This document shows positions 1-19,322 of a stretch of 24,229 nucleotides of DNA, piece by piece. Position 1 is the first letter of the stretch. Each line of letters begins with the position of its first letter. The position numbers and the translations under genes are program-made. The stretch comes from Alphaproteobacteria bacterium (lineage in GTDB: Bacteria > Pseudomonadota > Alphaproteobacteria > RF32 > CAG-239): positions 1-24,229 of the forward strand of contig JAFYRQ010000027.1 in NCBI GenBank assembly GCA_017546885.1. The letters are read 5' to 3'. The notes under the pieces are model-generated. The model was not told the DNA's origin and did no database searches. It worked only from the letters and a program-made list of their open reading frames with translations.

Positions 1-615
1 GTACACGCACAAAAAGATATAGCCTCAGGTCATATTGTAGAACTTGGAAAAGAGCCACGTCCCAATACAAGTTTAGATGCAGCAAACAGATTAATTGCAG
101 CTAAACACACAGTTACAACTCTTCCACAGCGTACTACAACACAAGAAGTTGAAACACCTCCTGTGGCTCCTGCTGAACCGGAAAAAACTCTTAAAGAAGA
201 AGGTATTGTTCAAGCTCAAGCTGATGAGGAAATAGCCAAAAAACAAAAACAAGTTGAAACAGACCCGCGCAGCGCTGAAAATGCAAGACGTGAACAAGCT
301 CACGAAGACAGAGGTAAAAAAATCAACCCGAGAATTGAAGAAATTAAAGCTCGTGCGTTAGCATCAAGACAAGCAAAACAAAGCGGTGCTGAGTTTATGG
401 TTGATGCGATGCTTGCAAACGGAAACTTGACACCGGAACAGCAAGAAGCTTTGTTAAATGCAGGTATTGCAGCCCAAAAAGCAGGAAAAGATGGTTCTAC
501 TGATCAAATTCTGAATAACATGAGAGAATCCGGACAGTTCAGTCAAGACCAAATTAAGACCGCTCGTGAAGTAAACTTTGCATACGGATTAGCCCAAAAG
601 ACAGGTAGAGAATAG
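1..615 (+). CDS. 5'-truncated hypothetical protein (Ala/Gln/Glu-rich C-terminus)
   Basis: Frame is open from base 1 (VHAQKDIASG...) to TAG at 613-615, so the 163 start in the track is internal. The stop shares one base with the GTG of the next gene. No family motif recognised. Confidence 0.8.
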   Translation, partial: VHAQKDIASGHIVELGKEPRPNTSLDAANRLIAAKHTVTTLPQRTTTQEVETPPVAPAEPEKTLKEEGIVQAQADEEIAKKQKQVETDPRSAENARREQAHEDRGKKINPRIEEIKARALASRQAKQSGAEFMVDAMLANGNLTPEQQEALLNAGIAAQKAGKDGSTDQILNNMRESGQFSQDQIKTAREVNFAYGLAQKTGRE

Positions 616-1130
616 TGAAAAAAATAAAGAAGTTTATTCGTTTCTGTTTTATCGGAGCAATATGGTCATATATCTATTTCGGAATAGTCGCATGGCTAAT
701 GAAATGGATTTGGAAATTTGATATTTTCGGTAAAAGGTATTGGATTAAAATATCTCGTTTTTGGCAAGATGGCGGTGTTATTGATACAGCGCAGGAATAT
801 TTCTTTGTAATCGCCTTGATTGCCATTATTCCGTTGTGGATATGGGGTTGGCGAAAAGCTATGAAAGTCTCGATAACCAAGATAATTTTCTTCCCTGTTT
901 TTTGGTATCACAATTATCAGGAAAAGAAATATGCTCAACTTCCCAAATCAATTACTTTGAAAAACATGGGATCAAAAGTAGGTGCTAAGCAAACGCCTCA
1001 ACAAATGTTAGAAGAAATGATTTCCAGTCGTATGCCGAAACAAAAAGATAAAAAAGATTTGAACTCAAGCAAAATTCGTAGTAGTTTTGAAGAAAAGAAT
1101 AAGACTTTTCATGAAAAAGTCGGTAAATAA
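615..1130 (+). CDS. Hypothetical membrane protein, paralog A (Trp-rich hydrophobic N-terminal domain, basic C-terminal tail)
   Basis: 171-aa ORF with GTG start coupled to the upstream stop (TAGTG). Two to three hydrophobic segments. Ungapped similarity to the N-terminus of the next ORF. Confidence 0.85.
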   Translation: MKKIKKFIRFCFIGAIWSYIYFGIVAWLMKWIWKFDIFGKRYWIKISRFWQDGGVIDTAQEYFFVIALIAIIPLWIWGWRKAMKVSITKIIFFPVFWYHNYQEKKYAQLPKSITLKNMGSKVGAKQTPQQMLEEMISSRMPKQKDKKDLNSSKIRSSFEEKNKTFHEKVGK

Positions 1131-1146
1131 GAAATAGGAGAATTTA

Positions 1147-2541
1147 TTGAAACCCTTACTCATACTTGCCAGAATCATAATTGTCGGTTTGTTATGGAGT
1201 GTTTTCTTCATGGAAAGCATTAGGGTTATTATGCTCCGTAACTGGCACTTTGACATCTTAAACATAGAACACTGGAATATCGCATGGAATTTGTGGTCCG
1301 ATTCGTGGGTTATATCAGAGCCTAAAGAGTGGGCTTTTGTACTCATTATCATATCGTTCATTCCTTTATGGTTCACAGGATGGATTGCTTTGAGCATGAT
1401 TTCTTGGGGTAAGATGATATGGTTTATCATAACTTTGCCATGGAGATTATTCAAAACATTGTTCTATAAACCGGTGAAAATCATTGCAACCAATACCGGT
1501 GTTACTCCGATTCGCAAAAAACGTTCATACAAAGAGATTCGTCCGCGAGCAATCAGAAGCACGACAACCACATATACAGACCAAATTGAACAGGAACCGC
1601 AACAAATTGTTTCCGTTCCGGCGCTTGCTCCGATTGTAATTCCGCCTTCATCAAAACCGAGCAAACCTGCTACTCAAAAATTTGACCACGCATTATTTAA
1701 GTTTGATGATGATGTTGACGATTTAGATTTTGATATTGATTCATTTGATGTTACCCCCGCTCAAAAACCGCAGGAAAATAATAACCATCGAAAAGAACGT
1801 TTTGATTATGACGAAGACGAAGCTCCGGCACGTCCTCGTAACAAACCTCAGAGCAGAGAAAGAGATAACGATAGAGATAGCGACAGACGCAACAGAAATT
1901 CTCGAGATAATGAGCGCCGTGACAGACAGGAACGAGCTCCCAGAAATGAGCGTCAGGAAAGAAATGAAAGACCGAATCGAGATTTCGAACGCCGCATAAA
2001 GGAAGATTTCAACAATAAAGAAAAACCGGTACAAAAACAACCGAGCGGCTCTTGTGTTGATATAATCAAACAAAAAGGCTATGAAGTTATCAGTCGTGTA
2101 AGTATCAAAAATACCATCATTGACTATGTCGGTGTCAGCGCAAATAAATTATGCTTGTGCATGCTAGACAGAGAACCTGGAGACTGGTTAGCGGATGAAG
2201 AACGTTTTAATGATGAAGAACCGTTATGGTTCTCTGAAAACTCGCACCGAGTTTCACCGGTTCGTAAAATTGATATAGCCAAAAGAATGATTGCGGATCG
2301 TTTGGAATCTGCTAACATAAAACTTGATATAGAAGCATTTGTAATTATCCAAATCGGTAATATTATAAATGCCGAAGATATGTTTGAAATTTGGGATTCT
2401 CTTGATATTCATGTAACCAGAATTGACAGAGGAACACCAAAAGAAATAAAATTGTTTGCCAGAGCATTACCTGATGCGGAAAAATCAATTGCACCGGGTA
2501 AACTTGATAAACTTATTAATTTATTGCGTAATATGGGATAA
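1147..2541 (+). CDS. Hypothetical membrane protein, paralog B: TM domain, charged low-complexity linker and C-terminal NERD-like (PD-(D/E)xK fold) domain
   Basis: 464 aa, TTG start with AGGAG RBS at 1136-1140. The C-terminal pattern IDYVGVSANKLCLCMLD...GDWLADEE...W...SPV parallels the NERD pattern IDH.V....GIFVIETK...GW...DE...W...NP. The domain call is by eye. Confidence 0.75.
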   Translation: MKPLLILARIIIVGLLWSVFFMESIRVIMLRNWHFDILNIEHWNIAWNLWSDSWVISEPKEWAFVLIIISFIPLWFTGWIALSMISWGKMIWFIITLPWRLFKTLFYKPVKIIATNTGVTPIRKKRSYKEIRPRAIRSTTTTYTDQIEQEPQQIVSVPALAPIVIPPSSKPSKPATQKFDHALFKFDDDVDDLDFDIDSFDVTPAQKPQENNNHRKERFDYDEDEAPARPRNKPQSRERDNDRDSDRRNRNSRDNERRDRQERAPRNERQERNERPNRDFERRIKEDFNNKEKPVQKQPSGSCVDIIKQKGYEVISRVSIKNTIIDYVGVSANKLCLCMLDREPGDWLADEERFNDEEPLWFSENSHRVSPVRKIDIAKRMIADRLESANIKLDIEAFVIIQIGNIINAEDMFEIWDSLDIHVTRIDRGTPKEIKLFARALPDAEKSIAPGKLDKLINLLRNMG

Positions 2542-2547
2542 CATAAA

Positions 2548-4731
2548 ATGGGATTACAAAAACGCGGAGAAGAATGGGCAGAATATGATCACGCGGTGCA
2601 ATGGATGTCATTGACCGTAATCATTACTCTTGTTGTAACAATTGTTTTAGCGGCGATAGCAATGCCGTTAGGCTACCTTATCGGCAATGGTGTATCAAAA
2701 GAATCCATTGAAACCGTCGGCAAATTTATGGCCACCATTTTTAACGATCCCGGATACCTTTTCAGACAATATGGTCGTTGGTTTAACCAAATATCTAACA
2801 GTCATGGTAGTTTCAGTTTAGGTATGTGGTTGCCGATTATACCTATTTTAACCCTTCCCATAGGCTTAATTATCGGTGCAATGAGTAACCCTTACCGATT
2901 TCAATCCAACATTCATGGTTCGGGACGTTTGGCAACCTTAAAAGATATTAAAGCCATGAAGTTGTTAGATGGCTTTTGTATGGTTGTAGGCAAATATAAA
3001 GGCTACTACTTAAAACTCCCTGAAACATTATCTACTCTATGTTGTGCACCTCCGGGAACCGGTAAAACCGTTGGAGTGGTTATCCCTACCATTTTCAATT
3101 CTAAAGGCATGAGCTTGGTTATTAACGACCCTAAACCGGAATTGTGCTACAGTACATCAGGTGCTCGCGCTAAAGATGGTCCGGTATTTATCATTAACTG
3201 GGGTGCGGAAGACAAGCCGGAGCAAGGTTTGTATTATCCGAGTTGGAATCCGTTGTCTCCTACAGCCTTACCGGTTGCAGGTCCGGCTCGTGATATGTAT
3301 ATCGACTCAATGTGTAATATTTTGGTGGAAGATCCTAAAGGCGGTGCCGACCCTCACTGGTCACAAACCGGTCGTGCGGCATTAACCGGATTTATTCACT
3401 TTATTTCTTCAAAATGCGAAAAAGCGCGTGCAAATGACTATTTCATCGGTCGTGTTTATGAAGGCAAACTTGATGCGGAAGATAAACAAGTTCTCGAAGG
3501 ATATTATGAAGAAATTAAAGGACACAATCCGGCTGCCGTAAGAGCCGTAACCGATTTGCGTAACAATAACCTTACTGTTGAAAACTATGTTCCTATCGGA
3601 ACTTGGGACTTGTTACCGGAAAAATGGGTCGGTCGTGAACCCTGTATTGCGATGATTATGGAGTGGTTGACCGAAGCACAAATCAAACAAGGTCGTGAAA
3701 TCCGTCGTCGTCTTGATGAAGGCGACCAAATGGCAGCAATGGCAGATCCTATGCGTGACTTGTTGGAAGCAGCTATTGATGAAGCCCGTAAGTATGGTTA
3801 TACTCAACGTGCCTACACGGAATTGTCATCATTAAGTAATATGCCTGATAAAGAACGTGGTTCCGTTATGTCAACAGCTTTCGCAGGTATCGGTGTATTC
3901 AAAAACTCGGCGGTTGTGGCAAGAACAAGCTTTTCTGACTTACAATTTAAAGATTTACGCGGTATGAAAGACCCGATTACCGGTGAATGGAAACCGATTT
4001 CGGTTTATTTGTCGGTTAACCAAGTGGATGCTCGTGCATTAGGTGTGATTAATGGTATTTTCATTGAATTGATGTCTTCGTACCTTATTTCAAACCCGCC
4101 AAACTTTGTTAATGCTTCAGACGGCAAAATGGGACCGTTCCCTTGTATGTTCGTATTGGACGAGTTTCCGCAAATGCCTAAACTTAAAGCGGTTATTGAC
4201 GGACCGGCGGTAGGACGTGGTCAAAAAGTGTCGTACTTGCTTATCGGACAAGATTTGGGACAAATTTCAGGTAAATACGGTAAGGATGACTTGGAAACGG
4301 TTATCTCTACCACCGCTTGCAAAATCATTTTATCACAGAACAACGAACAAACCGCTCAACGTTTCTCAAAAATGGTGGGTAACAAGACGGTTCAAACTTC
4401 TTCTTATTCAAAACAAGAAGGTTTTGCCAATAAAGGTGCTAACCCGTTCGCAAAGAATACAACTTATTCATTACAGGGTGTTTCGGTTATTACCGCATCT
4501 CAACTTTTGAGCTTACCTCAACTGAAACAGGTTGTATTAATGCAAAGTAACATTGACCACCCGATTATGGCAGATTCACCGCGTTGGTACTTGGATGCAA
4601 GAATGAAAGCTATGGCAAAACTTCCGCCTGCTCCGAATGTTCCGGAATGGATTGTTGCACAACGTGAAGACGTCAATGACAACATGATGGAAAAACTCGG
4701 ACTGGGAGAAGACGATAGTCAGGCCTCATAA
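2548..4731 (+). CDS. virD4: Type IV coupling protein, VirD4/TraG family ATPase
   Basis: Two N-terminal TM segments, HGSGRLA motif, Walker A APPGTGKT (3046-3069), INDPKPEL, ERGSVMST, Walker B LDEF (from 4156), GRGQKV...QDLGQISGKYG. Confidence 0.92.
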   Translation: MGLQKRGEEWAEYDHAVQWMSLTVIITLVVTIVLAAIAMPLGYLIGNGVSKESIETVGKFMATIFNDPGYLFRQYGRWFNQISNSHGSFSLGMWLPIIPILTLPIGLIIGAMSNPYRFQSNIHGSGRLATLKDIKAMKLLDGFCMVVGKYKGYYLKLPETLSTLCCAPPGTGKTVGVVIPTIFNSKGMSLVINDPKPELCYSTSGARAKDGPVFIINWGAEDKPEQGLYYPSWNPLSPTALPVAGPARDMYIDSMCNILVEDPKGGADPHWSQTGRAALTGFIHFISSKCEKARANDYFIGRVYEGKLDAEDKQVLEGYYEEIKGHNPAAVRAVTDLRNNNLTVENYVPIGTWDLLPEKWVGREPCIAMIMEWLTEAQIKQGREIRRRLDEGDQMAAMADPMRDLLEAAIDEARKYGYTQRAYTELSSLSNMPDKERGSVMSTAFAGIGVFKNSAVVARTSFSDLQFKDLRGMKDPITGEWKPISVYLSVNQVDARALGVINGIFIELMSSYLISNPPNFVNASDGKMGPFPCMFVLDEFPQMPKLKAVIDGPAVGRGQKVSYLLIGQDLGQISGKYGKDDLETVISTTACKIILSQNNEQTAQRFSKMVGNKTVQTSSYSKQEGFANKGANPFAKNTTYSLQGVSVITASQLLSLPQLKQVVLMQSNIDHPIMADSPRWYLDARMKAMAKLPPAPNVPEWIVAQREDVNDNMMEKLGLGEDDSQAS

Positions 4732-8472: not shown

Positions 8473-9857
8473 CCACCGCCTATTGACTTATAAAAACTGA
8501 TTATATTTTGATAAATTGCCCCTCGAGCAACAACCAGGTTATTTTGTGCTTCAAGGAGATTTTGCTCGGTTGATAAAATATCACTGAACTCTGATAATCC
8601 TGATTGATATTTAACTTTCATATTATCAAAAACTTCCTGCATATTATTAACCGAGCGTGTCAAAGCAATAACTTTATCATAACCTTTATTTGTCGCTTCA
8701 ACAGAATTACTTATATCTTGAATCGCCCCCAATAACGCATTTTGATATAAATATAAATATTCTTCTTTTATTGATTTGTTTAGCTTAACCTGATTTACTA
8801 ATTGTCCCCAGTGTAAAACAGGAATATTAACCACCGGAGTATATCCGTAAGCAGGATTTTCAGATTTTCCCAAGTCTTTAATCAGGTGAGCTTGCCAACC
8901 TAATATCGCCGTTATACTAACACTCGGAAACATATCGGCCACTGCTTGACCTATATCGGCATTTTTTGAAATCAGCATATTTTCTGCCATTTTAACATCC
9001 GGACGATTTCTTATTACTTCAACCGGAAATTCTCTCAACTTTTGCAAATTAAACGCAAATGTTTTTCTGACAATATTATTTTCGGTAGTATCAAGCTCCG
9101 CAATTTCTTCCGGCAATTTATCAAGCAAAATCGCAATAGCATTTTTATACGCTTTTACCTGATATTCCAAATCCGGCAATAATGATTTAGTGGTTTGAAC
9201 CGCATATTCTGCCTGATTTAAGGCAATATCATCAGCTAAACCTGATTTATACTTATCTCTGACCGTATTATATATTTCTTTTTGCAAACGTAAATTTTGC
9301 TTTGAAATTCGCAACCTTTCTTGTGTTGTACGCAACAAAATATAATTATTCGCTACCTCTGCCGTCATACTCAAAAACACATCATTCAAATTATTTGCCG
9401 CTGCACGATATAATGCTTGAGCACTTTCTCTCAAACGACGTCCTCCGCCCCAAATATCTAATTCCCAAGAAGCATCTAAGCCTAATCGATAATAGCTTGT
9501 TTTGTCACCTAATTCCTCATATTTCGGAGCATACATATAGTTATACTCACCATTAACATCAAGCATCGGAAAATATCGTACTTCACTGATATTCAACGAA
9601 TATCTGGCTTGTCGCAATTTTTCCAAAGCAATTTTTACATTAGGACTGTTTTGTAAAGCTTCGCCTATCAAGCGATTTAATGTTTCATCACCAAAATCCC
9701 GGTACCAAAAAATATTTATCGGATAATTTGAGTAATAATCCACTCCTAAACTGTTCACTAATTGCTGATTATTCCAAAATATCGGGCTTTCATAATCCGG
9801 TCCTACCGAACAGGAAGCCAGTAACAATATTGCCCCGATTTTACCTAACTTCCTCAT
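8466..9857 (-). CDS. RND efflux outer-membrane factor lipoprotein (OprM/NodT family)
   Basis: Lipobox LLASC followed by [25 protein letters not shown]-terminal YKSIGGGY. Confidence 0.93.
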
Positions 9858-12800
9858 TATTATTCTCCTTACTTTTTACCTTTGAGCTATATTCTTTTAT
9901 ACTTTCAAACAATGCGAAATATGCCGGAATAAATATTATTCCTACAAAAGTTGCAGCAATCATGCCGAAAAAAACCGCTGTTCCGATTGCAATTTGACTG
10001 GAAGCCCCGGCTCCACTGGCCACAATCATCGGAAAAACACCTAAAATAAAAGTCAATGCAGTCATTAATACAGCACGAAATCGCTCCCCTGCTCCTTTTA
10101 TCGAAGCCTCAAGTATGCTATCGCCTTTTTCACGATAAGACTTTGTAAACTCTACTATCAATATTGCATTTTTTGCCGCCAAACCTATTAGCATAACCAA
10201 ACCGAGTTGCGCATATATACTCAACGATTGTCCCATCAAATGCAAACCGATTAATGCTCCCATAATTGCAAAAATTGTTGAAAACATAACTGAAAATGCC
10301 AACATCCAACTCTCATACAAAGCAACCAAAAACAAATAACAAAATACTAGAGCCAAAACAATCAAAACGACTACTAAACCGGAAGCTTCAACCTCTTGTA
10401 AACTCAATCCGGTCCATGCTATTTTGTAACTGTCCGGAGATAATGTGGAATCTACTTCTTTCTCAACAGCATCAATAGCTGTTCCGGTACTTACTCCGTT
10501 AGCACTCTGAGCAACAACCGACGCATTTTGATATTGATTGTATCTGTTTATGGTTTTAGGAGACAATGATATTTTGACATCGGCAAAACTTCCTACTTTT
10601 ATCATGGAACCGTTAGCAGAACGAACATAGAGATTTTTTATATCCTCTATACTGCTTCTATAATCAAAATCAGCCTGAACAATAACTTTATTAACCTGTC
10701 CGCTCAAAGTTATATTATTTACATATCTTGAACCTAAATTATTTTGGAGAGTTTCAAACAAATCACTAACCTGAATTTTATATGATTCAAGCTTTGTTCT
10801 GTCTATATCCAAAAACACATGGGGCGCATCGGCAGTATAAACACTGAAAGCATAAGCTAAATCAGGATTTGAGTTTAATACTCCCAAAAACTTTTGCAAA
10901 TTTTCAAACAGTTCATTTGATGTAATATTTTGATTAATTGCCAAAAACTCCATCGTTAAACCGTTACTGTTTCCGATACCGGGAATTGCAGGAGGGGCAA
11001 AAAAGTTTATTTTAGCTCCGTTTATTGATGCAAATTCTTGAGTTAATTTTTCGGTTATTCCTTCAACAGATGTATTTTTTGTTTTTCGCTCATCCCATGG
11101 GTTTAAGCCTATAACCCCCAGAGCAACATTTTCGCCTGCTCCGCCCAACATACTGTATCCGGCAACACCTACAAAATATTTTACACCTTCAACTTTTCTT
11201 ACTTTTTCACCGATTTCTCCTAAAATTTTATTTGTCTGATTTATGCTTGAAGTATTGTCCAGCTGAATATCTCCGAAAATAATCCCTTGGTCTTCTTCAG
11301 GTAAAAATGATGTCGGAGTAAACTTAAATCCTAAACCTAAAATGGCAATAATTACCAACGTTAAAATTGTTGTTATTTTCAACTTTGAAGCAAAAAACTG
11401 AACCGCAATCAAATATTTTTGCTTAAAAAAATCTATCATGTCATCAAATGATTTAAAAAATCCGTGCGGTTGTTGCTGCTTATCATCTCGCAAAAATATT
11501 GCACAAAGAGACGGACTTAATGTCAACGCGTTAAAAGCCGAAAAAACAACAGCAGTTGCTATTGTAACCGCAAATTGCTGATATATTTTTCCGGTAATAC
11601 CGGCCATTAATCCGACGGGAACAAAAATTGATAAAAGAACAAATGTAGTTGCAATAATCGCACTTCCTATCTGTTGCATTGCTTTTATTGAAGCATTATG
11701 CGCATCCATATTTTCATAAGCCATCAAATATTGAACTCGCTCAACAACGATGATTGCATCATCAACAACCAAGCCTATCGCCAAAATCATAGCAAATAAG
11801 GTTAGAATATTTATATCAAATCCTAAAGCATATAAAACGGCAAAAGTAGCTATCAGTGATACAGGTATTGTTATTAGCGGAATTAATGTTGTTTTTGCTT
11901 TTTGTAAAAACAAATAAGTTACAGCTACCACAAGCAAAAACGTAATAAACAATGTTTCTATGATTCCGGCTATTGAGGCTCTCACATATTGAGTTGAATC
12001 ATAAGCAATTTTAAATTCTAAATCTTCGGAAAACGTTTTTGATAAATTTTCAATTTCCTTGGCAACATCATCCATAATATTCAACGAATTTGAGCCCGGA
12101 GTTTGACTTAAAGACATAATAACCGCAGGCGCATTATCAAAACTTGCATTCATAGTATAAGTATCCGCCCCTAGTTCGATTCGGGCTATATCTTCCAAAT
12201 AAACGATTCCACCGTTATCTGATGTTGCGACTACAATCTTTTTGAAATCCTCAACATTATTTAATAGTCCCTTGGCCGACAATGACAATACCATATTTGC
12301 TCCTTGTTTTGCCGGTGCAGACCCTATACTGCCTATTGAAGCCTGAACATTTTGAGAAGCAATAATATTAACTATATCTGTACTATCTAATCCCAATGAT
12401 GATATTTTTTCCGAATTTAGCCATACTCTCATACTATATTGCGGACCGAAAATTTGAACATCACTGACTCCGCTGACACGACCTAAAGGATTTTTCAAAT
12501 TCACATAAGCATAATTACTTAAATATAAATCATCATACGTATTATGAGGAGAACGCAAAACTAACAATGCCAACATATTTGACATTTCGGTAGTAACCGT
12601 AACACCTTCTTGTTGAACAATTGACGGCAGTTGCGACATAACCTGACTTAAGCGATTCTGCACCTTAACCTGAGCAATATCCGGATCGGTACCGACATTA
12701 AAAGTAATGGTGAGTTTATAATTTCCTTCGTCGTTTGATGTAGAACTCATATATAACATATCTTCCACACCATTAATTTGGTTTTCAATCGGAATTGCAA

Positions 12801-12987
12801 CCGTATCAACCACCACTTGAGCGCTTGCTCCCGGATAGGTAGTACTTACAACAATTTGCGGTGGTGTAATTTGAGGATATTGTGAAACAGGTAAAACAAA
12901 AATTGCCAATAAACCGATTAAGACCATAATTATGGACACAACGGCAGCAAAACGCGGTTTGTTTATAAAATATTGAGAAAACATCAT
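9841..12987 (-). CDS. RND efflux permease, HAE1/AcrB family
   Basis: 1048 aa; [15 protein letters not shown], proton-relay motifs [25 protein letters not shown] and R.RAVLMT intact. The start could be the second ATG at 12984. Confidence 0.96.
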
Positions 12988-14114
12988 TTATTCTCCTTCT
13001 CACCGCTTATCTCGTTTATTTTTACCTTTTGTTCGTCGGGTTTTAAGGTAATTTTTTCGGCAACAAGCTTCATTGTCGGCAAAAAATTATTTTCAAGAAC
13101 ATAATTATTGCCCGATTCTGCCAATATTTTCACATTATGTTTTTTTACGATATTTCCCTCGGTTACATAAACGAAACTGTTTTCCGATTGCAACGTAACC
13201 AAATCTTTATTTATCAAAATTCCTTTGTAATCTTTTGCAACCATTACCGTCACATAAGCCTTATCCATGAGCTTTTGTTTCGGATTCTCAAAATCGGCAT
13301 ATACAGCTACGGAATTTGTTGTTCTGTCTATCTGATTATCCGAATACTTAAACACTCCCTCATATTCATAAACATTACCGTTTGCCAGTTTTAATCTGAT
13401 TCGTTCATCATCAAACATTTTTTCTTTGGCATTTTCTTCCAAATAATCTTTATCGCTGATTGAAAAAACAACTCGCATCGGATTGGTCTGAATAATGCTG
13501 AAAAGAACATTTTGCGGAGAAATATAATCCCCCTTTGTCAAGGCAACATTTCCGACAATACCGTTAATTGTCGAAGTAACAACCGTATATCCTAAATTTA
13601 CTTCTGCTTGTTTTACATTAGCTTTTGCCTGATGCAAAACCGCTTGCGATGCCAAAAAAGACGATTTTGCATTATCTGTTTCTGTTTGAGAAACCGCTTT
13701 TAAACCGGCATTTTTTATTCTTTCATAATAATTTCTGGCATATTCAAAATCGGCTGTCGCCTTAGAAAGAGAAGCATTAGCAGCATCAAGAGCAGCCTGA
13801 TATTGCTCTTGTTCCATAACCACTAATTGTTGTCCTGCGCTAACTTTTTGTCCGCCTTCTACCAAAACTTCACTTACAAAACCGTTTATATAAGGTTGAA
13901 CACTAACATCATTTATCGGAGTCACATAGCCGATATATTGCTTTTCTACCGCAACATTTTTTTCAACTATCGGGACAACATTAATTTCTGCTTCCGACAT
14001 TTCTTTTTCGGGCAAACTAATTTTATGATGTAAATGCCATCCTAACCAAGCCGCAAAAATTAAAAAAACAAGAGCTATAATCCAAGCATGCGCGTATCCT
14101 TTTTTATCAACCAT
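12984..14114 (-). CDS. RND efflux periplasmic adaptor (membrane fusion protein, AcrA-like)
   Basis: N-terminal TM anchor, VQPYINGFV...V..GQ lipoyl half-motif, helical hairpin, [11 protein letters not shown]. Its stop overlaps the permease start (ATGA). Confidence 0.93.
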
Positions 14115-14250
14115 TTTGCCCTCTTCGTAAAAATTAAACTTATGATTTAAATAATTTGTGTTATTAACAATTCAAGCCGTAATTTTAATCAAATTTTTAG
14201 ACATTACATGTAAGTTATAATGAATAAAAAAGTTCCGGGGAGCGAATCAG

Positions 14251-15288
14251 ATGTTATATAGTTTTCTAAATGCCTATACTGCCGACTTTTTGGCATTTTT
14301 TACTTCATTAATAATAATGCTTTTATGCGGCAAAAAATTTATTAAATTAATGCGTGCATGGCAACATGAAGGGCAGCCGATAAGAGAGTGCGGACCTAAA
14401 AGCCATTTGGAGACAAAAAAAGGAACTCCTACAATGGGAGGAATTTTGATTTTAGCTTCAATTATAATATCAACTTTGCTCTTTGCCAATCTCAAACAAG
14501 GAATGACCTGGGTATGTTTAGGTGTTATGATTGTTTTCGGAATTGCCGGCTTTATTGATGACTATGTAAAAGTAAAAAAACATACTCCTAATGCAATGAC
14601 CGCAAAAGTTAAACTGCTAATTCAATTTGCCGTTGCTGCCGGAGTAGCATATTTTGCCACAACACAATATGAAGCCCCTATGAACTTTAGCATTATTGTT
14701 CCCTATCTCGACTTCCCGATTAATTTGTGGTGGTTTTACATACCGTTTGCCATGGTTGTAATTGCCGGTGCTTCCAATGCCGTAAACTTAAGTGACGGAC
14801 TAGACGGATTGGCAGCAGGCTTGCTTATTCCTCCTTTTATGGTTTTAGGATTTATTGCTCTTTTAATCGGCTTTGAATATTACGATTTTATGCCATTCCC
14901 GAGTTTAAGCATCATTTGTTCTGCCGTTATCGGAGCTTGTTTGGGATTTTTGTGGTTCAACTGCTCTCCTGCTCAAATTTTTATGGGCGATACCGGTTCT
15001 TTGTCTCTCGGTGCCCTTTTGGGAACGATTGCTATTTTGGCTAAACAAGATTTATTATTGGCAATTATAGGTTTTGTTTTTGTTGCAGAAGCTTTGTCGG
15101 TAATGATACAGGTTTTTTGGTACAAACGCACCAAAACAAGAGTATTTTTAATGGCTCCCATTCATCACCACTTTGAACAAAAAGGGTGGAAAGAAACAAC
15201 TGTGGTAATACGTTTTTGGGTTATCGGTTGGTTGGTTGCCGGCCTCGGAATGCTCGCAGTTGTAAGCCCTACCGCATGGGGAAACTAA
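14251..15288 (+). CDS. mraY: Phospho-N-acetylmuramoyl-pentapeptide transferase
   Basis: KKGTPTMGG, GFIDDYVK, NAVNLSDGLDGLA, FMGDTGSL, APIHHHFEQKGW. Confidence 0.97.
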   Translation: MLYSFLNAYTADFLAFFTSLIIMLLCGKKFIKLMRAWQHEGQPIRECGPKSHLETKKGTPTMGGILILASIIISTLLFANLKQGMTWVCLGVMIVFGIAGFIDDYVKVKKHTPNAMTAKVKLLIQFAVAAGVAYFATTQYEAPMNFSIIVPYLDFPINLWWFYIPFAMVVIAGASNAVNLSDGLDGLAAGLLIPPFMVLGFIALLIGFEYYDFMPFPSLSIICSAVIGACLGFLWFNCSPAQIFMGDTGSLSLGALLGTIAILAKQDLLLAIIGFVFVAEALSVMIQVFWYKRTKTRVFLMAPIHHHFEQKGWKETTVVIRFWVIGWLVAGLGMLAVVSPTAWGN

Positions 15289-16416
15289 ATGCTGATATCT
15301 CGCGGTAAAAATAACTTTTTTACAAATTGGTGGTGGACTGTTGATAAAATATTACTCGGTTGTATTATCGCGTTAATTACCATAGGGGTAATTTTATGTT
15401 TTTCAGCCTCCCCGGCTGTTGCCGAAAGAGAAGGTTTCGGAAGTTATCACTTTATAAAACGCCACCTGATATTTGCTCCTGTTGCACTAGGAATTGTTAT
15501 TTCTTTATCTATGCTAAAACTTAAAACCATCCGCAGAATTGCTCTGTTAGGATATTTAGTTGCCATGATATTGGTCGGGATGACTTTTTTCCTAGGAGAA
15601 GCGAACAGAGGTGCATCTCGTTGGATTCCTTTTTTTGGTTTTACTTTACAACCTTCAGAATTTGTAAAACCATTCTTTATCATTATGGCCGCTTGGCTGT
15701 TTAACGGACAAAAACAACAACCTGATTTCCCCGGAAATTTCTTGTCAATCGGACTGTTTATAATTACGGCAAGCGCGATACTTTTTCAACCTGATATCGG
15801 AATGACTACCGTTGTATCCGTCATCTGGGCCGCTCAATTAGTGTTAAGCGGAATTCCGTTATTTTGGATAATTATATTAGGTATATTGGCTATTATCGGA
15901 GTAATAATCGGATATTTTACTTTTCCGCATTTTCAGATGCGCATACTTCAATTTTTCGCCTCAGGAAATGATACACCATATCAAATTAAACGTGCAAATG
16001 AAGCTTTTGCAAGCAGCAATTTTTTTGGCAGAGGTCCCGGAGAAGGAATAGCACGCTCTCATATCCCAGATGCCCATACAGACTTTATTTATGCCGTAAT
16101 TGCCGAAGAATACGGATTTTTTATCTGTCTTGCCGTTGTCCTTTTATACGCAACAATAGTTATTCGCTCGCTCATATTATCATGCAGAGAAAACAATTTT
16201 TTCATTGTTTTATCTGTTTCGGGACTTGCTCTGTCTTTCGGTATTCAAGCAGTAATTAATATGGCATCAACTCTGCAATTAATGCCAACTAAAGGTATGA
16301 CCTTGCCGTTTATATCCTATGGCGGTTCTTCAATATTGGCATCTGCAATAGGTATGGGAATGCTTCTGGCAATCACTCGTAAAAACTCTCATGCGGAGGA
16401 TAAAGATAATGTCTGA
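15289..16416 (+). CDS. ftsW: SEDS peptidoglycan glycosyltransferase FtsW
   Basis: GASRWI, QPSEFVKP, QPDIG, PDAHTDFI, EEYG, PTKGMTLPFISYGGSS; located between mraY and murG. Confidence 0.96.
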   Translation: MLISRGKNNFFTNWWWTVDKILLGCIIALITIGVILCFSASPAVAEREGFGSYHFIKRHLIFAPVALGIVISLSMLKLKTIRRIALLGYLVAMILVGMTFFLGEANRGASRWIPFFGFTLQPSEFVKPFFIIMAAWLFNGQKQQPDFPGNFLSIGLFIITASAILFQPDIGMTTVVSVIWAAQLVLSGIPLFWIIILGILAIIGVIIGYFTFPHFQMRILQFFASGNDTPYQIKRANEAFASSNFFGRGPGEGIARSHIPDAHTDFIYAVIAEEYGFFICLAVVLLYATIVIRSLILSCRENNFFIVLSVSGLALSFGIQAVINMASTLQLMPTKGMTLPFISYGGSSILASAIGMGMLLAITRKNSHAEDKDNV

Positions 16417-17515
16417 CAGCAAAAAAAAACTCATAATTCTAACTGCCGGTGGCACCGGAGGACATGTTTATCCTGCGGATGCACTTGCACAAGAACTTGA
16501 AAAACGCAACTATAATTTAATGTTGGTTACGGACCAAAGAGGACTGAACAACTATCACGGCAAACTGAGCGAAATTGAAAACAAAGCCGTATTAAGCGGT
16601 GCTTTAGTCGGTAAAAATATTTGGTTTAAGATAAAAAGTTTAATTAAAGTTTCTTTAGGTATTTTACAATCCGTTTATATTATTATCAAATATAAGCCCG
16701 AGTGTGTTGTAGGTTTCGGCGGATATGCTTCATTTCCTTGTGCAGTTGCTGCCATCCTGACAGGAACAGATTTAATAATTCACGAACAAAACTCGGTTAT
16801 GAGCCGAACAAATCGCTTTTTAGCTAAATATGCTTCTAAAATAGCCACAAGCTTTCCTAAAACAAAATATGCTCCGCAAGGAAATCAAACTGTTTTAACC
16901 GGTATGCCGGTAAGAACAACAATATCTGCACTTTTTGATAAACAATACAAACAACCTGAACAAAACGGAAAATTTAATCTGTTGGTTCTGGGCGGTTCAC
17001 AAGGAGCAAAAATCTTCTCGGAAGTCATACCGCAAGCAATTAAATCTCTTGATGAAAAAATTCAGCAAAATATTCATATCACGCAACAGTGCAGAAAAGA
17101 TGACATTGAGCTGTTGCAAAAAGAATATTCGGATGCAAAATGTTCTGCCGAAATATCAAATTTCTTCAAAAATATGCCGGAATTATATGATACGAACCAC
17201 ATTATCATATCTCGCGCCGGTGCTTCTTCCGTTTGTGAAATTGCAGCTGCGGGAATTCCGTCAATTTTAGTTCCGTTACCGACGGCAGCAGACGATCATC
17301 AAACATTTAATGCTTCCGAATTTAAGAATAAAAATGGCGGCATGGTAATCGCTCAAAAAGATTTCACAGCCGAAAAACTGCAAGAAATATTGGAAAAATT
17401 TATAAATAATCCGACAGAATTGGAAATAATGGCAAGAAACACCAAAAAATTTGCAATCATTGATGCCGATAAACGTCTTGCCGATGTTGTAGAAACAATT
17501 ATAAAGAGAGGTTAA
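16409..17515 (+). CDS. murG: Lipid II N-acetylglucosaminyltransferase MurG
   Basis: GGTGGHVYP, GFGGY, HEQN, GGSQGA, RAGASS, DDHQ..NA. Start reassigned to ATG 16409 behind GGAGGA at 16395-16400. Confidence 0.97.
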   Translation: MSDSKKKLIILTAGGTGGHVYPADALAQELEKRNYNLMLVTDQRGLNNYHGKLSEIENKAVLSGALVGKNIWFKIKSLIKVSLGILQSVYIIIKYKPECVVGFGGYASFPCAVAAILTGTDLIIHEQNSVMSRTNRFLAKYASKIATSFPKTKYAPQGNQTVLTGMPVRTTISALFDKQYKQPEQNGKFNLLVLGGSQGAKIFSEVIPQAIKSLDEKIQQNIHITQQCRKDDIELLQKEYSDAKCSAEISNFFKNMPELYDTNHIIISRAGASSVCEIAAAGIPSILVPLPTAADDHQTFNASEFKNKNGGMVIAQKDFTAEKLQEILEKFINNPTELEIMARNTKKFAIIDADKRLADVVETIIKRG

Positions 17516-17516
17516 T

Positions 17517-18437
17517 ATGTTTAATTTTTTCAAAAAGAAACCTATGCTTAAACTTCTCCCGAAAGTTAAAGGAAAATACTTAAATAATGTCAATTTAAGC
17601 AAACATACGTGGTTTGGTGTCGGTGGTCCTGCCGAAGTTATGTATATTCCGTCAGATGAAAATGATTTGAGCTATTTTTTAAAAAACTGCCCTAAAAATA
17701 TTCCTACTTTTGTAATCGGTGGCGGTTCAAATTTGCTGGTGCGTGACGGTGGCATTCCCGGTGTGGTAATCAAACTCGATTCGCCATCATTCAAAAAGAT
17801 AACCTTAGGTGATAACGAAATAACCTGCGGAGCCGGATTAAAAAATATTGAACTGAAAAAACACTTGATTGCCAATGAATTGGGCGGACTGGAATTTTTA
17901 TGTTCAATTCCGGGAGTAATCGGCGGGTCGGTAAAAACAAATGCCGGATGTTTCGGAAAAGAAGTTAAAGATGTTATAACCTCTGCTCAGATTATAAACG
18001 GAGACGGCGAAATTAAAACCATCGGTGTAAAAGATTTAGAGCTTGATTACAGAACAAGTTGTTTTCCTGATGATTGGATTATCTTATCAATCAGCTTTAA
18101 AACAACTAAAGACAGTAAGGAAAATATTGAAAAAACTTTAGCAGAGCAAAAAGCATATCGACAAGCCAATCAGCCATATAACCAAAAAACTGCCGGTTCA
18201 ACTTTCAAAAATCCCAAAGGATTGCGAGCATGGGAATTAATAAAAAAATCCGAATGCGATTCGTTGGTTGTCGGCGGAGCAAAAGTTTCTGATAAACATT
18301 GCAATTTTTTGATTAACACCGGCAATGCTACCGCAAAAGATATTGAAACCTTGGGGGAAACCATAATATCTCAGGTTCGTCAAAAAACATATATCACACT
18401 TGAATGGGAAGTTAAAAGAGTAGGCATAGATAAATAG
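17517..18437 (+). CDS. murB: UDP-N-acetylenolpyruvoylglucosamine reductase
   Basis: TWFGVGGPAE, GGGSNLLV, IPGVIGG...NAG, YRTS, GSTFKNP, HCNFLIN, LEWEV. Confidence 0.96.
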   Translation: MFNFFKKKPMLKLLPKVKGKYLNNVNLSKHTWFGVGGPAEVMYIPSDENDLSYFLKNCPKNIPTFVIGGGSNLLVRDGGIPGVVIKLDSPSFKKITLGDNEITCGAGLKNIELKKHLIANELGGLEFLCSIPGVIGGSVKTNAGCFGKEVKDVITSAQIINGDGEIKTIGVKDLELDYRTSCFPDDWIILSISFKTTKDSKENIEKTLAEQKAYRQANQPYNQKTAGSTFKNPKGLRAWELIKKSECDSLVVGGAKVSDKHCNFLINTGNATAKDIETLGETIISQVRQKTYITLEWEVKRVGIDK

Positions 18438-19322
18438 ATGTGGTTTTGGAAAAAAAACATAAAACCGGAAATTCCGGCTCAAAAAGTCGATGAGAAATAT
18501 AAGGTATATTTACCAAAATTATGGCCTTATCGTTTCATCGGCAATTTGTGTCTTTTGTGGCTCATCGCTGCCGTTTCTTTTGGTATATATGTTGCAAAAA
18601 CTAATTTTGTAGAACAAAAACTCGATACATTTTCCGACTACTTTATCGATATAACCTCTAAGATTGGTTTTACCGTTGATGACGTGATTATTCAAGGGCG
18701 AGACAAGACTCCTTTGGAAGATATAAAAAACATCATAAATTTAGCCAATAACAACAATATCTTTAACATTGATATTCATCAGATAAAACAAGATATTTTG
18801 CTGCTTCCGTGGGTAAAAACGGTTGTAATTGAACGTTCATATTTTCCAAATAATATAAATATAAAAATAACCGAAAAAGAAATAAGCGCAATTTGGCAAA
18901 CAAACAACAGTTTTTATCCGGTTGACAAAGATGGTTTTGTTATAAAAACCAACCATATTCCCGTTGTTCCTACACTCATTATTACGGGTAAAGGCGCTCC
19001 TGAAAATATCAACAAGCTGTTGCCGATAATACAAGAAGACGATTCGCTTTACAAACGCATCAAGGCTGCCTCATATATTTCTGAACGACGTTGGGATATT
19101 ATTTTGGACGATATTGAAAATGGTGTGACCATAAGACTTCCGGCCGAAAAGACAAAAAATGCTTGGAAAAAATTGATAAAATTGAGCAAAACGCAAGGAC
19201 TTCTTAAGCGTAAATTAACCATCATTGATTTAAGATTCGGGAACAAAGTTGTAGTGACTCCGTTAAAGCTCTCAAAAGAAGAGCGATTGCGTCGTCGAAA
19301 CATTAAAGAACACAAACTATAA
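18438..19322 (+). CDS. ftsQ: Cell division protein FtsQ/DivIB
   Basis: Single TM segment, POTRA-like region (LPWVKTVVIERSYFPNNINIKITE), RRWDIIL, IDLR; directly upstream of ftsA. Confidence 0.92.
   Translation: MWFWKKNIKPEIPAQKVDEKYKVYLPKLWPYRFIGNLCLLWLIAAVSFGIYVAKTNFVEQKLDTFSDYFIDITSKIGFTVDDVIIQGRDKTPLEDIKNIINLANNNNIFNIDIHQIKQDILLLPWVKTVVIERSYFPNNINIKITEKEISAIWQTNNSFYPVDKDGFVIKTNHIPVVPTLIITGKGAPENINKLLPIIQEDDSLYKRIKAASYISERRWDIILDDIENGVTIRLPAEKTKNAWKKLIKLSKTQGLLKRKLTIIDLRFGNKVVVTPLKLSKEERLRRRNIKEHKL

Follow-up and report, generated by a model that had tools for sequence, protein, structure and literature searches.

The window analyzed in this study is a stretch of 24,229 nucleotides of alphaproteobacterial DNA. 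Near its beginning lies the gene of a membrane protein, hereafter P0001, which is directly followed by the gene of a type IV coupling protein (T4CP). The features of this locus are listed in Table 1. The P0001 gene starts with a TTG codon, located 8 nt 3′ of an AGGAG sequence. Hydropathy placed the two transmembrane helices of the protein at residues ~4-22 and ~64-82, and they are joined by a Trp-rich periplasmic loop. The flank after the second helix has 12 K/R residues against one D/E residue by charge count. Because of this flank, the positive-inside rule predicts that the remainder of P0001, including its C-terminal domain, is cytoplasmic. The low-complexity part of the linker, as judged from composition, covers residues ~120-295. 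The linker differs in length among orthologues (369 to 505 aa in total), whose ends are conserved. The last 165-170 residues are globular; nucleotides 2047-2541 comprise residues 301-464 and the stop codon, while elsewhere in this analysis we set the domain limits at residues ~296-464.

Table 1. Annotated features around the P0001 gene, with positions counted from the first nucleotide of the window.
Feature	Position	Strand	Basis
Large, fast-evolving gene in the same operon, 3′ end	1..615	+	operon order in relatives
Upstream paralogue, 171 aa, Trp-rich membrane domain only	615..1130	+	BLASTP
464-aa membrane protein with C-terminal NERD-like domain (P0001)	1147-2541	+	single ORF, 464 codons
Trp-rich N-terminal membrane domain of P0001	1147..1446	+	hydropathy, charge flanks
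Basic juxtamembrane stretch and long R/D/E/P/N-rich low-complexity linker, residues ~101-300	1447..2046	+	composition
Divergent NERD-type (PD-(D/E)xK fold) C-terminal domain	2047..2538	+	AF2, Foldseek, Pfam in relatives, conservation
D326, Asp of the NERD-like domain	2122-2124	+	
M339-L340-D341, NERD-like domain	2161-2169	+	
GDWLADEE, NERD-like domain	2179-2202	+	
PLWFSE, NERD-like domain	2221-2238	+	
SPV, NERD-like domain	2254-2262	+	
IINAEDM, NERD-like domain	2362-2382	+	
VirD4/TraG-type type IV coupling protein, 727 aa	2548..4731	+	PF02534, PF12696, PF10412; NCBIfam VirD4/TraG models
58-residue T4CP insert, residues 293-350	3424..3597	+	MAFFT alignment, 15 T4CPs

An earlier sequence-only reading of this DNA had proposed a membrane-tethered nuclease fold beside a translocase. 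The residues on which it relied (D326, Y-V-G-V-S-A-N-K-L-C-L-C, M339-L340-D341, REPGDWLADEE, PLWFSE and SPV) are present exactly in the translation. Hydropathy and charge agree with its membrane tether, namely two hydrophobic helices and then a strongly basic flank. The translocase is also real: directly downstream is a VirD4-type T4CP with a Walker A (PPGTGKT, residues 168-174) and a Walker B motif (MFVLDE, residues 534-539). It matches PF02534 at E 3e-59, which together with these motifs places it in the T4CP class. Its gene begins 6 nt past the stop codon of the P0001 gene.

The genes on the 5′ side belong to the same operon. The membrane domain of P0001 shares 31% identity over 93 aa with the 171-aa upstream ORF (BLASTP, E 8e-13). 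In four genomes (G002, G055, G108 and G330) the two genes form tandem pairs in which the upstream paralogue also has a NERD-like domain, more divergent than the downstream one. The upstream NERD-like paralogues of other lineages lose D341, and the RF32-type lineage has lost this second domain entirely. The gene at the very start of the window encodes 623-749 aa in close relatives (623, 660 and 749 aa). It matched no family and showed only weak similarity to its counterpart at locus L005. In close relatives the operon order is DUF6476, a gene of ~305 aa, a gene of 623-749 aa, a gene of ~171 aa, the NERD-like gene and the T4CP gene, with housekeeping genes on the flanks. For the 305-aa and 749-aa genes, nothing was found in ESM-Atlas or Pfam. 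In more distant families only the pairing of the NERD-like gene with the T4CP gene is kept, and a NERD-like domain, more divergent, is often present in the upstream paralogue as well.

We surveyed this pairing in a class sample of 401 alphaproteobacterial genomes. The domain is carried by 24 of them, all small (0.9-2.5 Mb), and each of the 24 has an orthologous T4CP (45-74% identity). In 21 of these genomes, from at least 13 families, the NERD-like gene is the immediate 5′ neighbour of the T4CP gene. Among the other three, the pair is divided by contig ends in two and is truly apart in one (G372). With a conserved T4CP adjacency and a membrane anchor carrying a predicted cytoplasmic domain, P0001 has the features of a T4CP accessory protein. 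Related T4CPs (39-53% identity) are encoded in thirteen further genomes that lack the domain. A conserved insert of 58 residues is present in all nine T4CPs from domain-carrying genomes that were aligned and is missing in five of the six domain-less lineages. The exception is the G077/G246 lineage, whose T4CP has the insert and yet no detectable domain partner. As these genomes are mutually related, we treat the co-occurrence of insert and partner as a lead rather than a statistic. The insert is a candidate docking region for the NERD-like domain.

Is the T4CP part of a secretion system? VirB4 was found elsewhere in the genome in all five complete genomes with the module. In G057, a complete genome of the same family, VirB4 and VirB8 form a cluster with genes for VirB2-like and several giant unknown proteins, a layout that recalls the rvh system of Rickettsiales. 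A search with three relaxase families found none in the complete genomes G057 and G107. The source genome, which is 70% complete, has a stand-alone VirB8 amid housekeeping genes, and no VirB4 or VirB10 was found in it. Because VirB4 is present in five of five complete genomes, a T4CP standing alone without a type IV secretion system (T4SS) was rejected for the family. We also rejected a plasmid or ICE origin: the domain was matched in none of 72,556 plasmids, and the flanking genes are housekeeping genes. The T4SS of this module is chromosomal and rvh-like, and its genes are scattered. As for a defence system, PADLOC gave no match for P0001 or the other scanned operon proteins, and on the T4CP only a marginal one (mads_8, E 9.8e-4), so this candidate was dropped as well.

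The kinship of the C-terminal domain with NERD was revealed through its relatives. P0001 itself is below the Pfam PF08378 gathering score (22.1 bits); direct hmmscan of the protein and of its C-terminal piece gave no Pfam NERD match, even at E<=1, and its sequence found nothing meaningful in Pfam, NCBIfam, PADLOC or PDB. We used residues 296-464 as the query of an exhaustive HMMER search and obtained 245 cluster representatives. When 123 of these were scanned singly (E<=1), 55 matched PF08378, with a best E value of 5.7e-7, and six matched the REase family MTES_1575. When the NERD model was run over genomes, orthologues from other alphaproteobacterial families scored 31.4, 26.7 and 26.1 bits, against the curated cut-off of 22.1 bits. 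Alignment of the family profile with six canonical NERD domains by hhalign gave E values of 4e-4 and 1.8e-3, with probabilities of 15-34%. Of the 100 nearest ESM-Atlas clusters, which are language-model neighbours, 90 are NERD. Homology to NERD is therefore found at the family level, in a transitive way, by Pfam in relatives, hhalign and ESM-Atlas.

The predicted structure points in the same direction. AlphaFold2 (AF2) on the 123-sequence alignment gave a model with pLDDT 95.8 and pTM 0.90, in which the elements follow the order helix, three-strand meander, extra hairpin, long helix, strand, helix, strand. The alpha-beta-beta-beta-alpha-beta core of restriction endonucleases is present in this model. 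The leading Foldseek matches in PDB were NucS/EndoMS, AF1548, R2 restriction-like endonuclease, Bax1, N.BspD6I and Card1/Cdn1, all of which are PD-(D/E)xK nucleases. In a viral fold library, the matches were proteins named 'Nuclease-related domain', 'restriction enzyme' and 'PD-(D/E)XK'. The scores were modest across both libraries (E 3.5e-4 to 6e-3, TM about 0.4), and the best PDB match was weak (E 6e-3, TM 0.39). We consider this fold-search evidence as supportive of the kinship and not decisive alone. A profile search of PDB gave sub-threshold matches only; one of them (E 0.67), in which 'VWLADES' was matched to rhomboid GlpG within its cytoplasmic domain, was taken as chance. The restriction-endonuclease-like fold that the sequence-only reading had assumed is thus borne out by AF2, Foldseek, Pfam NERD in relatives, hhalign and ESM-Atlas neighbours, which all agree.

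Compared with NERD (PF08378), the domain has the same fold order of helix, three-strand meander, helix and strand, and its sequence kinship is detectable. It keeps the I-D of strand 2 and the same hairpin lengths, has the turn Gly and then Trp past strand 3, and caps the next helix with S/N-P. Unlike NERD, every member of the present family lacks E-x-K, and the Q of NP..Q is lost. A new invariant WLADEE / PLWFSE / IINAEDM signature and additional C-terminal strand and helices are also found, and the domain is membrane-anchored and syntenic with a T4CP.

The loss of E-x-K is a property of the family. At residues 339-341, [DE]-x-K was found in 0 of 123 diverse members, and D-x-K at residues 341-343 in only four of the 123. 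Among 121 close orthologues, D326 is present in 120, residue 339 is L, M or I, and D341 and E343 are each present in all 121. In the wider family, D326 is present in 80 of 107 diverse members, D341 in 96 of 123 and E343 in 57 of 123. Orthologues that keep E-x-K would have pointed to a strain-specific decay in P0001, as the sequence-only reading had pointed out, and the orthologues do not keep it.

The same reading had described the change as a replacement of E-x-K by M-x-D. The loss of E-x-K stands; which residues take the positions of Glu and Lys depends on the register of the alignment. In both profile alignments D326 pairs with the catalytic Asp of NERD strand 2. Strand 3 has no (D/E)-x-K in either of them, offering M339-L-D341 when ungapped and D341-R-E343 when gapped. 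The ungapped register, obtained by hhalign with the diverse alignment, sets I-D-Y-V-G-V-S-A-N-K-L-C-L-C-M-L-D-R-E-P-G against the canonical I-D-H-L-I-V-S-P-Y-G-V-F-V-V-E-T-K-N-L-S-G, so that M339 falls on the Glu and D341 on the Lys. It preserves both hairpin lengths and the turn glycine, and agrees with the limits of the strands in the AF2 model (28-35 and 39-46, numbered within the 169-residue piece). The gapped register, obtained by hhalign with the alignment of the closer set (A2), has a two-residue gap and puts D341 at Glu and E343 at Lys. A small purpose-built NERD HMM placed E-x-K inconsistently. Judging by the ungapped profile alignment and the hairpin lengths, we favour M339 in place of Glu and D341 in place of Lys. 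In either register the lysine is absent.

In place of E-x-K, the family has a near-invariant signature, WLADEE..FN.E.PLWFSE..HR.SP...IINAEDM...W. S370 and N408 are invariant in 123 of 123 members, and conservation over all 123 reaches at least 90% at W347, A349, E351, P359, W361, F362, P371 and W416. The T4CP-linked set (alignment A2) has 27 invariant positions, including D341, D350, E351, E352, E357, E364, H367, R368 and D411. The residues around the lost motif are under extreme conservation over at least 13 GTDB families. The family is a NERD subfamily with a new signature and a new context, and it probably has a new role. With high confidence, we identify the domain of P0001 as a divergent, lysine-less NERD-fold domain that is membrane-tethered and has a genetic link to a VirD4-type ATPase.

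The domain is also found in other architectures. Its distant homologues form the N-terminus of CbbX/EccA-type AAA+ proteins that have one to three AAA modules and AAA_lid_6; at least one AAA+-fused homologue lies in a Bacteroidota-like housekeeping neighbourhood. Two further proteins carry the domain between TPR and Roc-COR-TIR parts. In the fusions D326 is often lost and the new signature is retained. In EccA-type ATPases, the N-domain binds a substrate or partner. The N-domains of CbbX/EccA/SpoVK-type AAA+ proteins thus include distant homologues of our domain; unlike them, P0001 is a separate membrane protein, and it is paired with an ATPase of the FtsK/HerA-type T4CP class.

It seems that the domain serves as a docking or recognition head for the VirD4-type ATPase, without classical nucleic-acid cutting, a reading to which we give a probability of about one half. 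A docking or recognition module is suggested because the domain recurrently pairs with three kinds of NTPase, because its synteny with the T4CP is tight and its tether flexible, and because the canonical motif is lost while another conserved surface persists. In this scheme, the NERD-like protein would be co-expressed with the VirD4-type coupling ATPase, and its two-helix anchor and long disordered linker would hold the domain on the cytoplasmic side of the inner membrane. There, the domain may bind the T4CP, possibly on the lineage-specific 58-aa insert, and may present or gate the substrates of the chromosomal, relaxase-independent, rvh-like T4SS. It would not cleave nucleic acids in the classical manner. 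The sequence-only reading had likewise suggested an inactive fold reused as an adaptor, and the domain may be inactive, or an adaptor. Physical binding of the T4CP, a role in recognition and a lack of catalysis are what we infer from the evidence above.

A possible parallel is DotM/IcmP, the membrane partner of DotL, which is the coupling protein of Legionella Dot/Icm. In both cases the gene lies immediately 5′ of the T4CP gene, and its product combines a membrane anchor at the N-terminus with a globular domain in the cytoplasm, as a candidate receptor for effector-type T4SS substrates. The differences are considerable. P0001 has no sequence match to any solved structure, no DotM chain is among the top 50 fold matches listed, and no NCBIfam or Pfam Dot/Icm model matched here. 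In addition, the T4SS is VirB-like (VirB2/4/8) rather than type IVB. The role of P0001 may therefore be analogous to that of DotM, whereas the ancestry appears not to be shared. More broadly, and only as a tentative proposal that is more doubtful than the docking role, the WLADEE-type, lysine-less NERD derivative might be a new, portable recognition module coupled to NTPases. In Alphaproteobacteria, both those of the gut with small genomes and others, a membrane-anchored copy would then be the substrate receptor or gate of the VirD4-type T4CP, docked on a co-evolved 58-residue insert within a relaxase-independent rvh-like T4SS, and in Bacteroidota and conflict-system proteins the module would serve AAA+ and Roc-COR NTPases.

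Several observations weigh against a docking head. In close orthologues D326 (120 of 121), D341 and E343 (both 121 of 121) are more conserved than expected of a dead site. Weak fold-search scores, the insert without a partner in G077/G246, the partner away from the T4CP in G372 and the lack of VirB4 in the source genome, which is 70% complete, also count against it. The main rival is that the domain is still an enzyme, either a nuclease or a phosphodiesterase, whose lysine-less active site has been rewired and which would process DNA or RNA handled by the T4CP. Such a site could consist of D326, D341 and E343, or of the invariant DEE, E and H-R residues in the insert that separates strand 3 from helix 2. 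BamHI and BglII are PD-(D/E)xK enzymes with lysine-less active sites, and the BamHI site (D94/E111/E113) shows that a D...D-x-E type site can be active. In the gapped register, where alignment A2 pairs D341 with the catalytic Glu of NERD and E343 with the Lys, the domain would have the same D...D-x-E arrangement, with the same acid-for-lysine replacement. Its D341 is kept widely (96 of 123), S370 and N408 flank the classical active site of the fold, and D350, E351, E352, E357, E364, H367 and R368, invariant like N408 and D411 in the T4CP-linked set, could form a new catalytic centre. However, E343 is only moderately conserved here (57 of 123) and the register is ambiguous, so that a D...D-x-E site is putative, unlike those of BamHI and BglII. 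D326 is lost in many AAA-fused members in which the signature persists, the upstream paralogues lose D341, and the RF32-type lineage dropped the second domain. Besides, two complete genomes that carry the module yielded neither a relaxase nor another partner for DNA processing. We therefore regard a rewired enzyme as rather unlikely.

It is less probable still that the domain is a sensor of a small ligand (e.g. a nucleotide or second messenger), which switches the attached or adjacent NTPase (T4CP, AAA+ or Roc-COR) on and off without binding substrates. Its occurrence beside three unrelated types of NTPase, including the conflict-system-like TPR-Roc-COR-TIR proteins, would fit such a sensor, and the invariant polar residues S370, N408 and E351 together with the aromatic W347, W361, F362 and W416 would suit a pocket. 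The fold matches even include the nuclease domains of Card1 and Cdn1, which are cOA-activated CARF effectors. However, these are nuclease modules rather than sensor modules, and no ligand-binding family was matched. A sensor also overlaps with a docking or recognition module, and the present data do not separate the two. Two other explanations we consider excluded. That the resemblance to NERD is chance and the domain an unrelated alpha/beta fold might be suspected from the failure of hmmscan with P0001, the hhalign probabilities of 15-34% and the Foldseek TM of ~0.4. It is very improbable, considering four independent lines that agree, namely that 55 of 123 relatives match NERD, some above the curated cut-off, that the leading fold matches in two libraries are all REase-like nucleases, that the language-model neighbours are NERD, and that the I-D strand, hairpin lengths, turn Gly, Trp and S/N-P helix cap stay in register. 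That an ordinary NERD nuclease decayed recently in this strain alone has practically no probability: nothing was found in its favour, 121 close orthologues have the same residues, none of the 123 diverse members has the motif, and the surrounding residues are extremely conserved across at least 13 GTDB families.

To our knowledge, the choice of substrates by VirD4-type proteins has been clarified in only a few model systems, for example through relaxosome accessory proteins and through DotM/DotN/IcmSW of Legionella. Here, a conserved and unannotated partner gene of the T4CP, with a probably repurposed nuclease fold as the head domain of its product, occurs across a clade of uncultured small-genome Alphaproteobacteria of gut and rumen. 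If the domain is a T4SS receptor or gate, it would be an entry point to the secreted substrates of these abundant, unstudied gut bacteria. The NERD subfamily is also a natural experiment on what becomes of the PD-(D/E)xK scaffold after the loss of its lysine. Our literature search, which covered DUF6476, NERD in connection with coupling proteins, and type IV secretion in RF32, brought up nothing relevant; we thus found no published description of the family or of its T4CP link, and the family has no Pfam annotation. About 1000 hypothetical proteins gain a domain assignment. The close relatives of P0001 are proteins of uncultured Alphaproteobacteria from gut and rumen, which bear the labels 'uncultured Azospirillum sp.', CAG:495 or Candidatus Scatocola, and the two most conserved peptide motifs were matched in at least 385 species-level genomes.

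The T4CP encoded directly downstream of the NERD-like gene carries a conserved insert, which was found in all nine aligned T4CPs of genomes that have a NERD-like partner and was absent from five of the six lineages that lack one. The sampled genomes G077/G246 have the insert, and no NERD-like partner was detectable in them.

Features located in this part of the analysis
Feature	Location	Details
Conserved T4CP insert, 58 residues	window 3424-3597	T4CP residues 293-350
Low-complexity linker of the NERD-like protein	window about 1500-2030	long, zwitterionic, R/D/E/N/P-rich
Stand-alone VirB8 homologue	G000 (the window's own genome), contig C44:10321-11100, locus L150	PF04335, E 6.6e-16
Very large proteins between VirB4 and VirB8	G057, L144:2454-5675 and 8693-18859	1073, 575, 437, 660 and 1329 aa
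Small separate ORF, 121 aa	G000, contig C26:13057-13311, locus L018	NERD model positions 1-87, E 6.6e-6

The membrane part of the NERD-like protein is one of two tandem, paralogous Trp-rich membrane domains (window 615-1130 and 1147-1446), which share 31% identity across 93 aa. The upstream paralogue has, in other alphaproteobacterial families, its own C-terminal NERD-like domain, more divergent and lacking D341; in the lineage of the window this paralogue is shortened to 171 aa. Of 176 residues in the linker of the NERD-like protein, R accounts for 27, D for 22 and E for 16, and the linker's length differs among orthologues. In the gut lineage, the operon upstream of the pair (L003/L005/L033) opens with a DUF6476 protein of about 94 aa; next come one protein of about 305 aa and another, of 623-749 aa, that evolves fast. 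A recognisable family was found for none of the three, and tblastn revealed none of their genes ahead of the pair in the more distant loci examined.

The VirB8 homologue of G000 is surrounded by housekeeping genes (dnaE, oligopeptidase), and searches for VirB4 and VirB10 in this assembly, which is 70% complete, detected neither. In G057, a genome of the same family, genes for a VirB2-like protein, VirB4, giant proteins and VirB8 are clustered, and the 1073-aa protein contains a VirB2/TrbC-like segment. The giant proteins may be VirB6-like components in expanded form, as in Rickettsiales.

The NERD-like domain also occurs in other architectures. In the distant homologues P0177 and P0187 it is preceded by TPR repeats and followed by a Roc-COR GTPase, and a TIR domain occupies the C-terminus; this layout is conflict-system-like. 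In CbbX/EccA-type AAA+ proteins of 500-1400 aa with up to three AAA modules (P0240, P0253, P0266, P0254, P0257 and others; loci L148 and L149), it is the N-terminal domain. These fusions are single genes among housekeeping genes, and one neighbourhood is Bacteroidota-like.

Positions 13-52 of the profile from A1, our alignment of NERD-like domain relatives, gave a sub-threshold match (E about 0.7), including the stretch VWLADES, to the N-terminal cytoplasmic domain of the rhomboid protease GlpG (PDB 2LEP/2MJA). This resemblance is probably due to chance. ORFs of 117-174 aa resembling L018 were seen in many sampled Alphaproteobacteria, and L018 itself probably encodes a small PD-(D/E)xK protein unrelated to the NERD-like partner.
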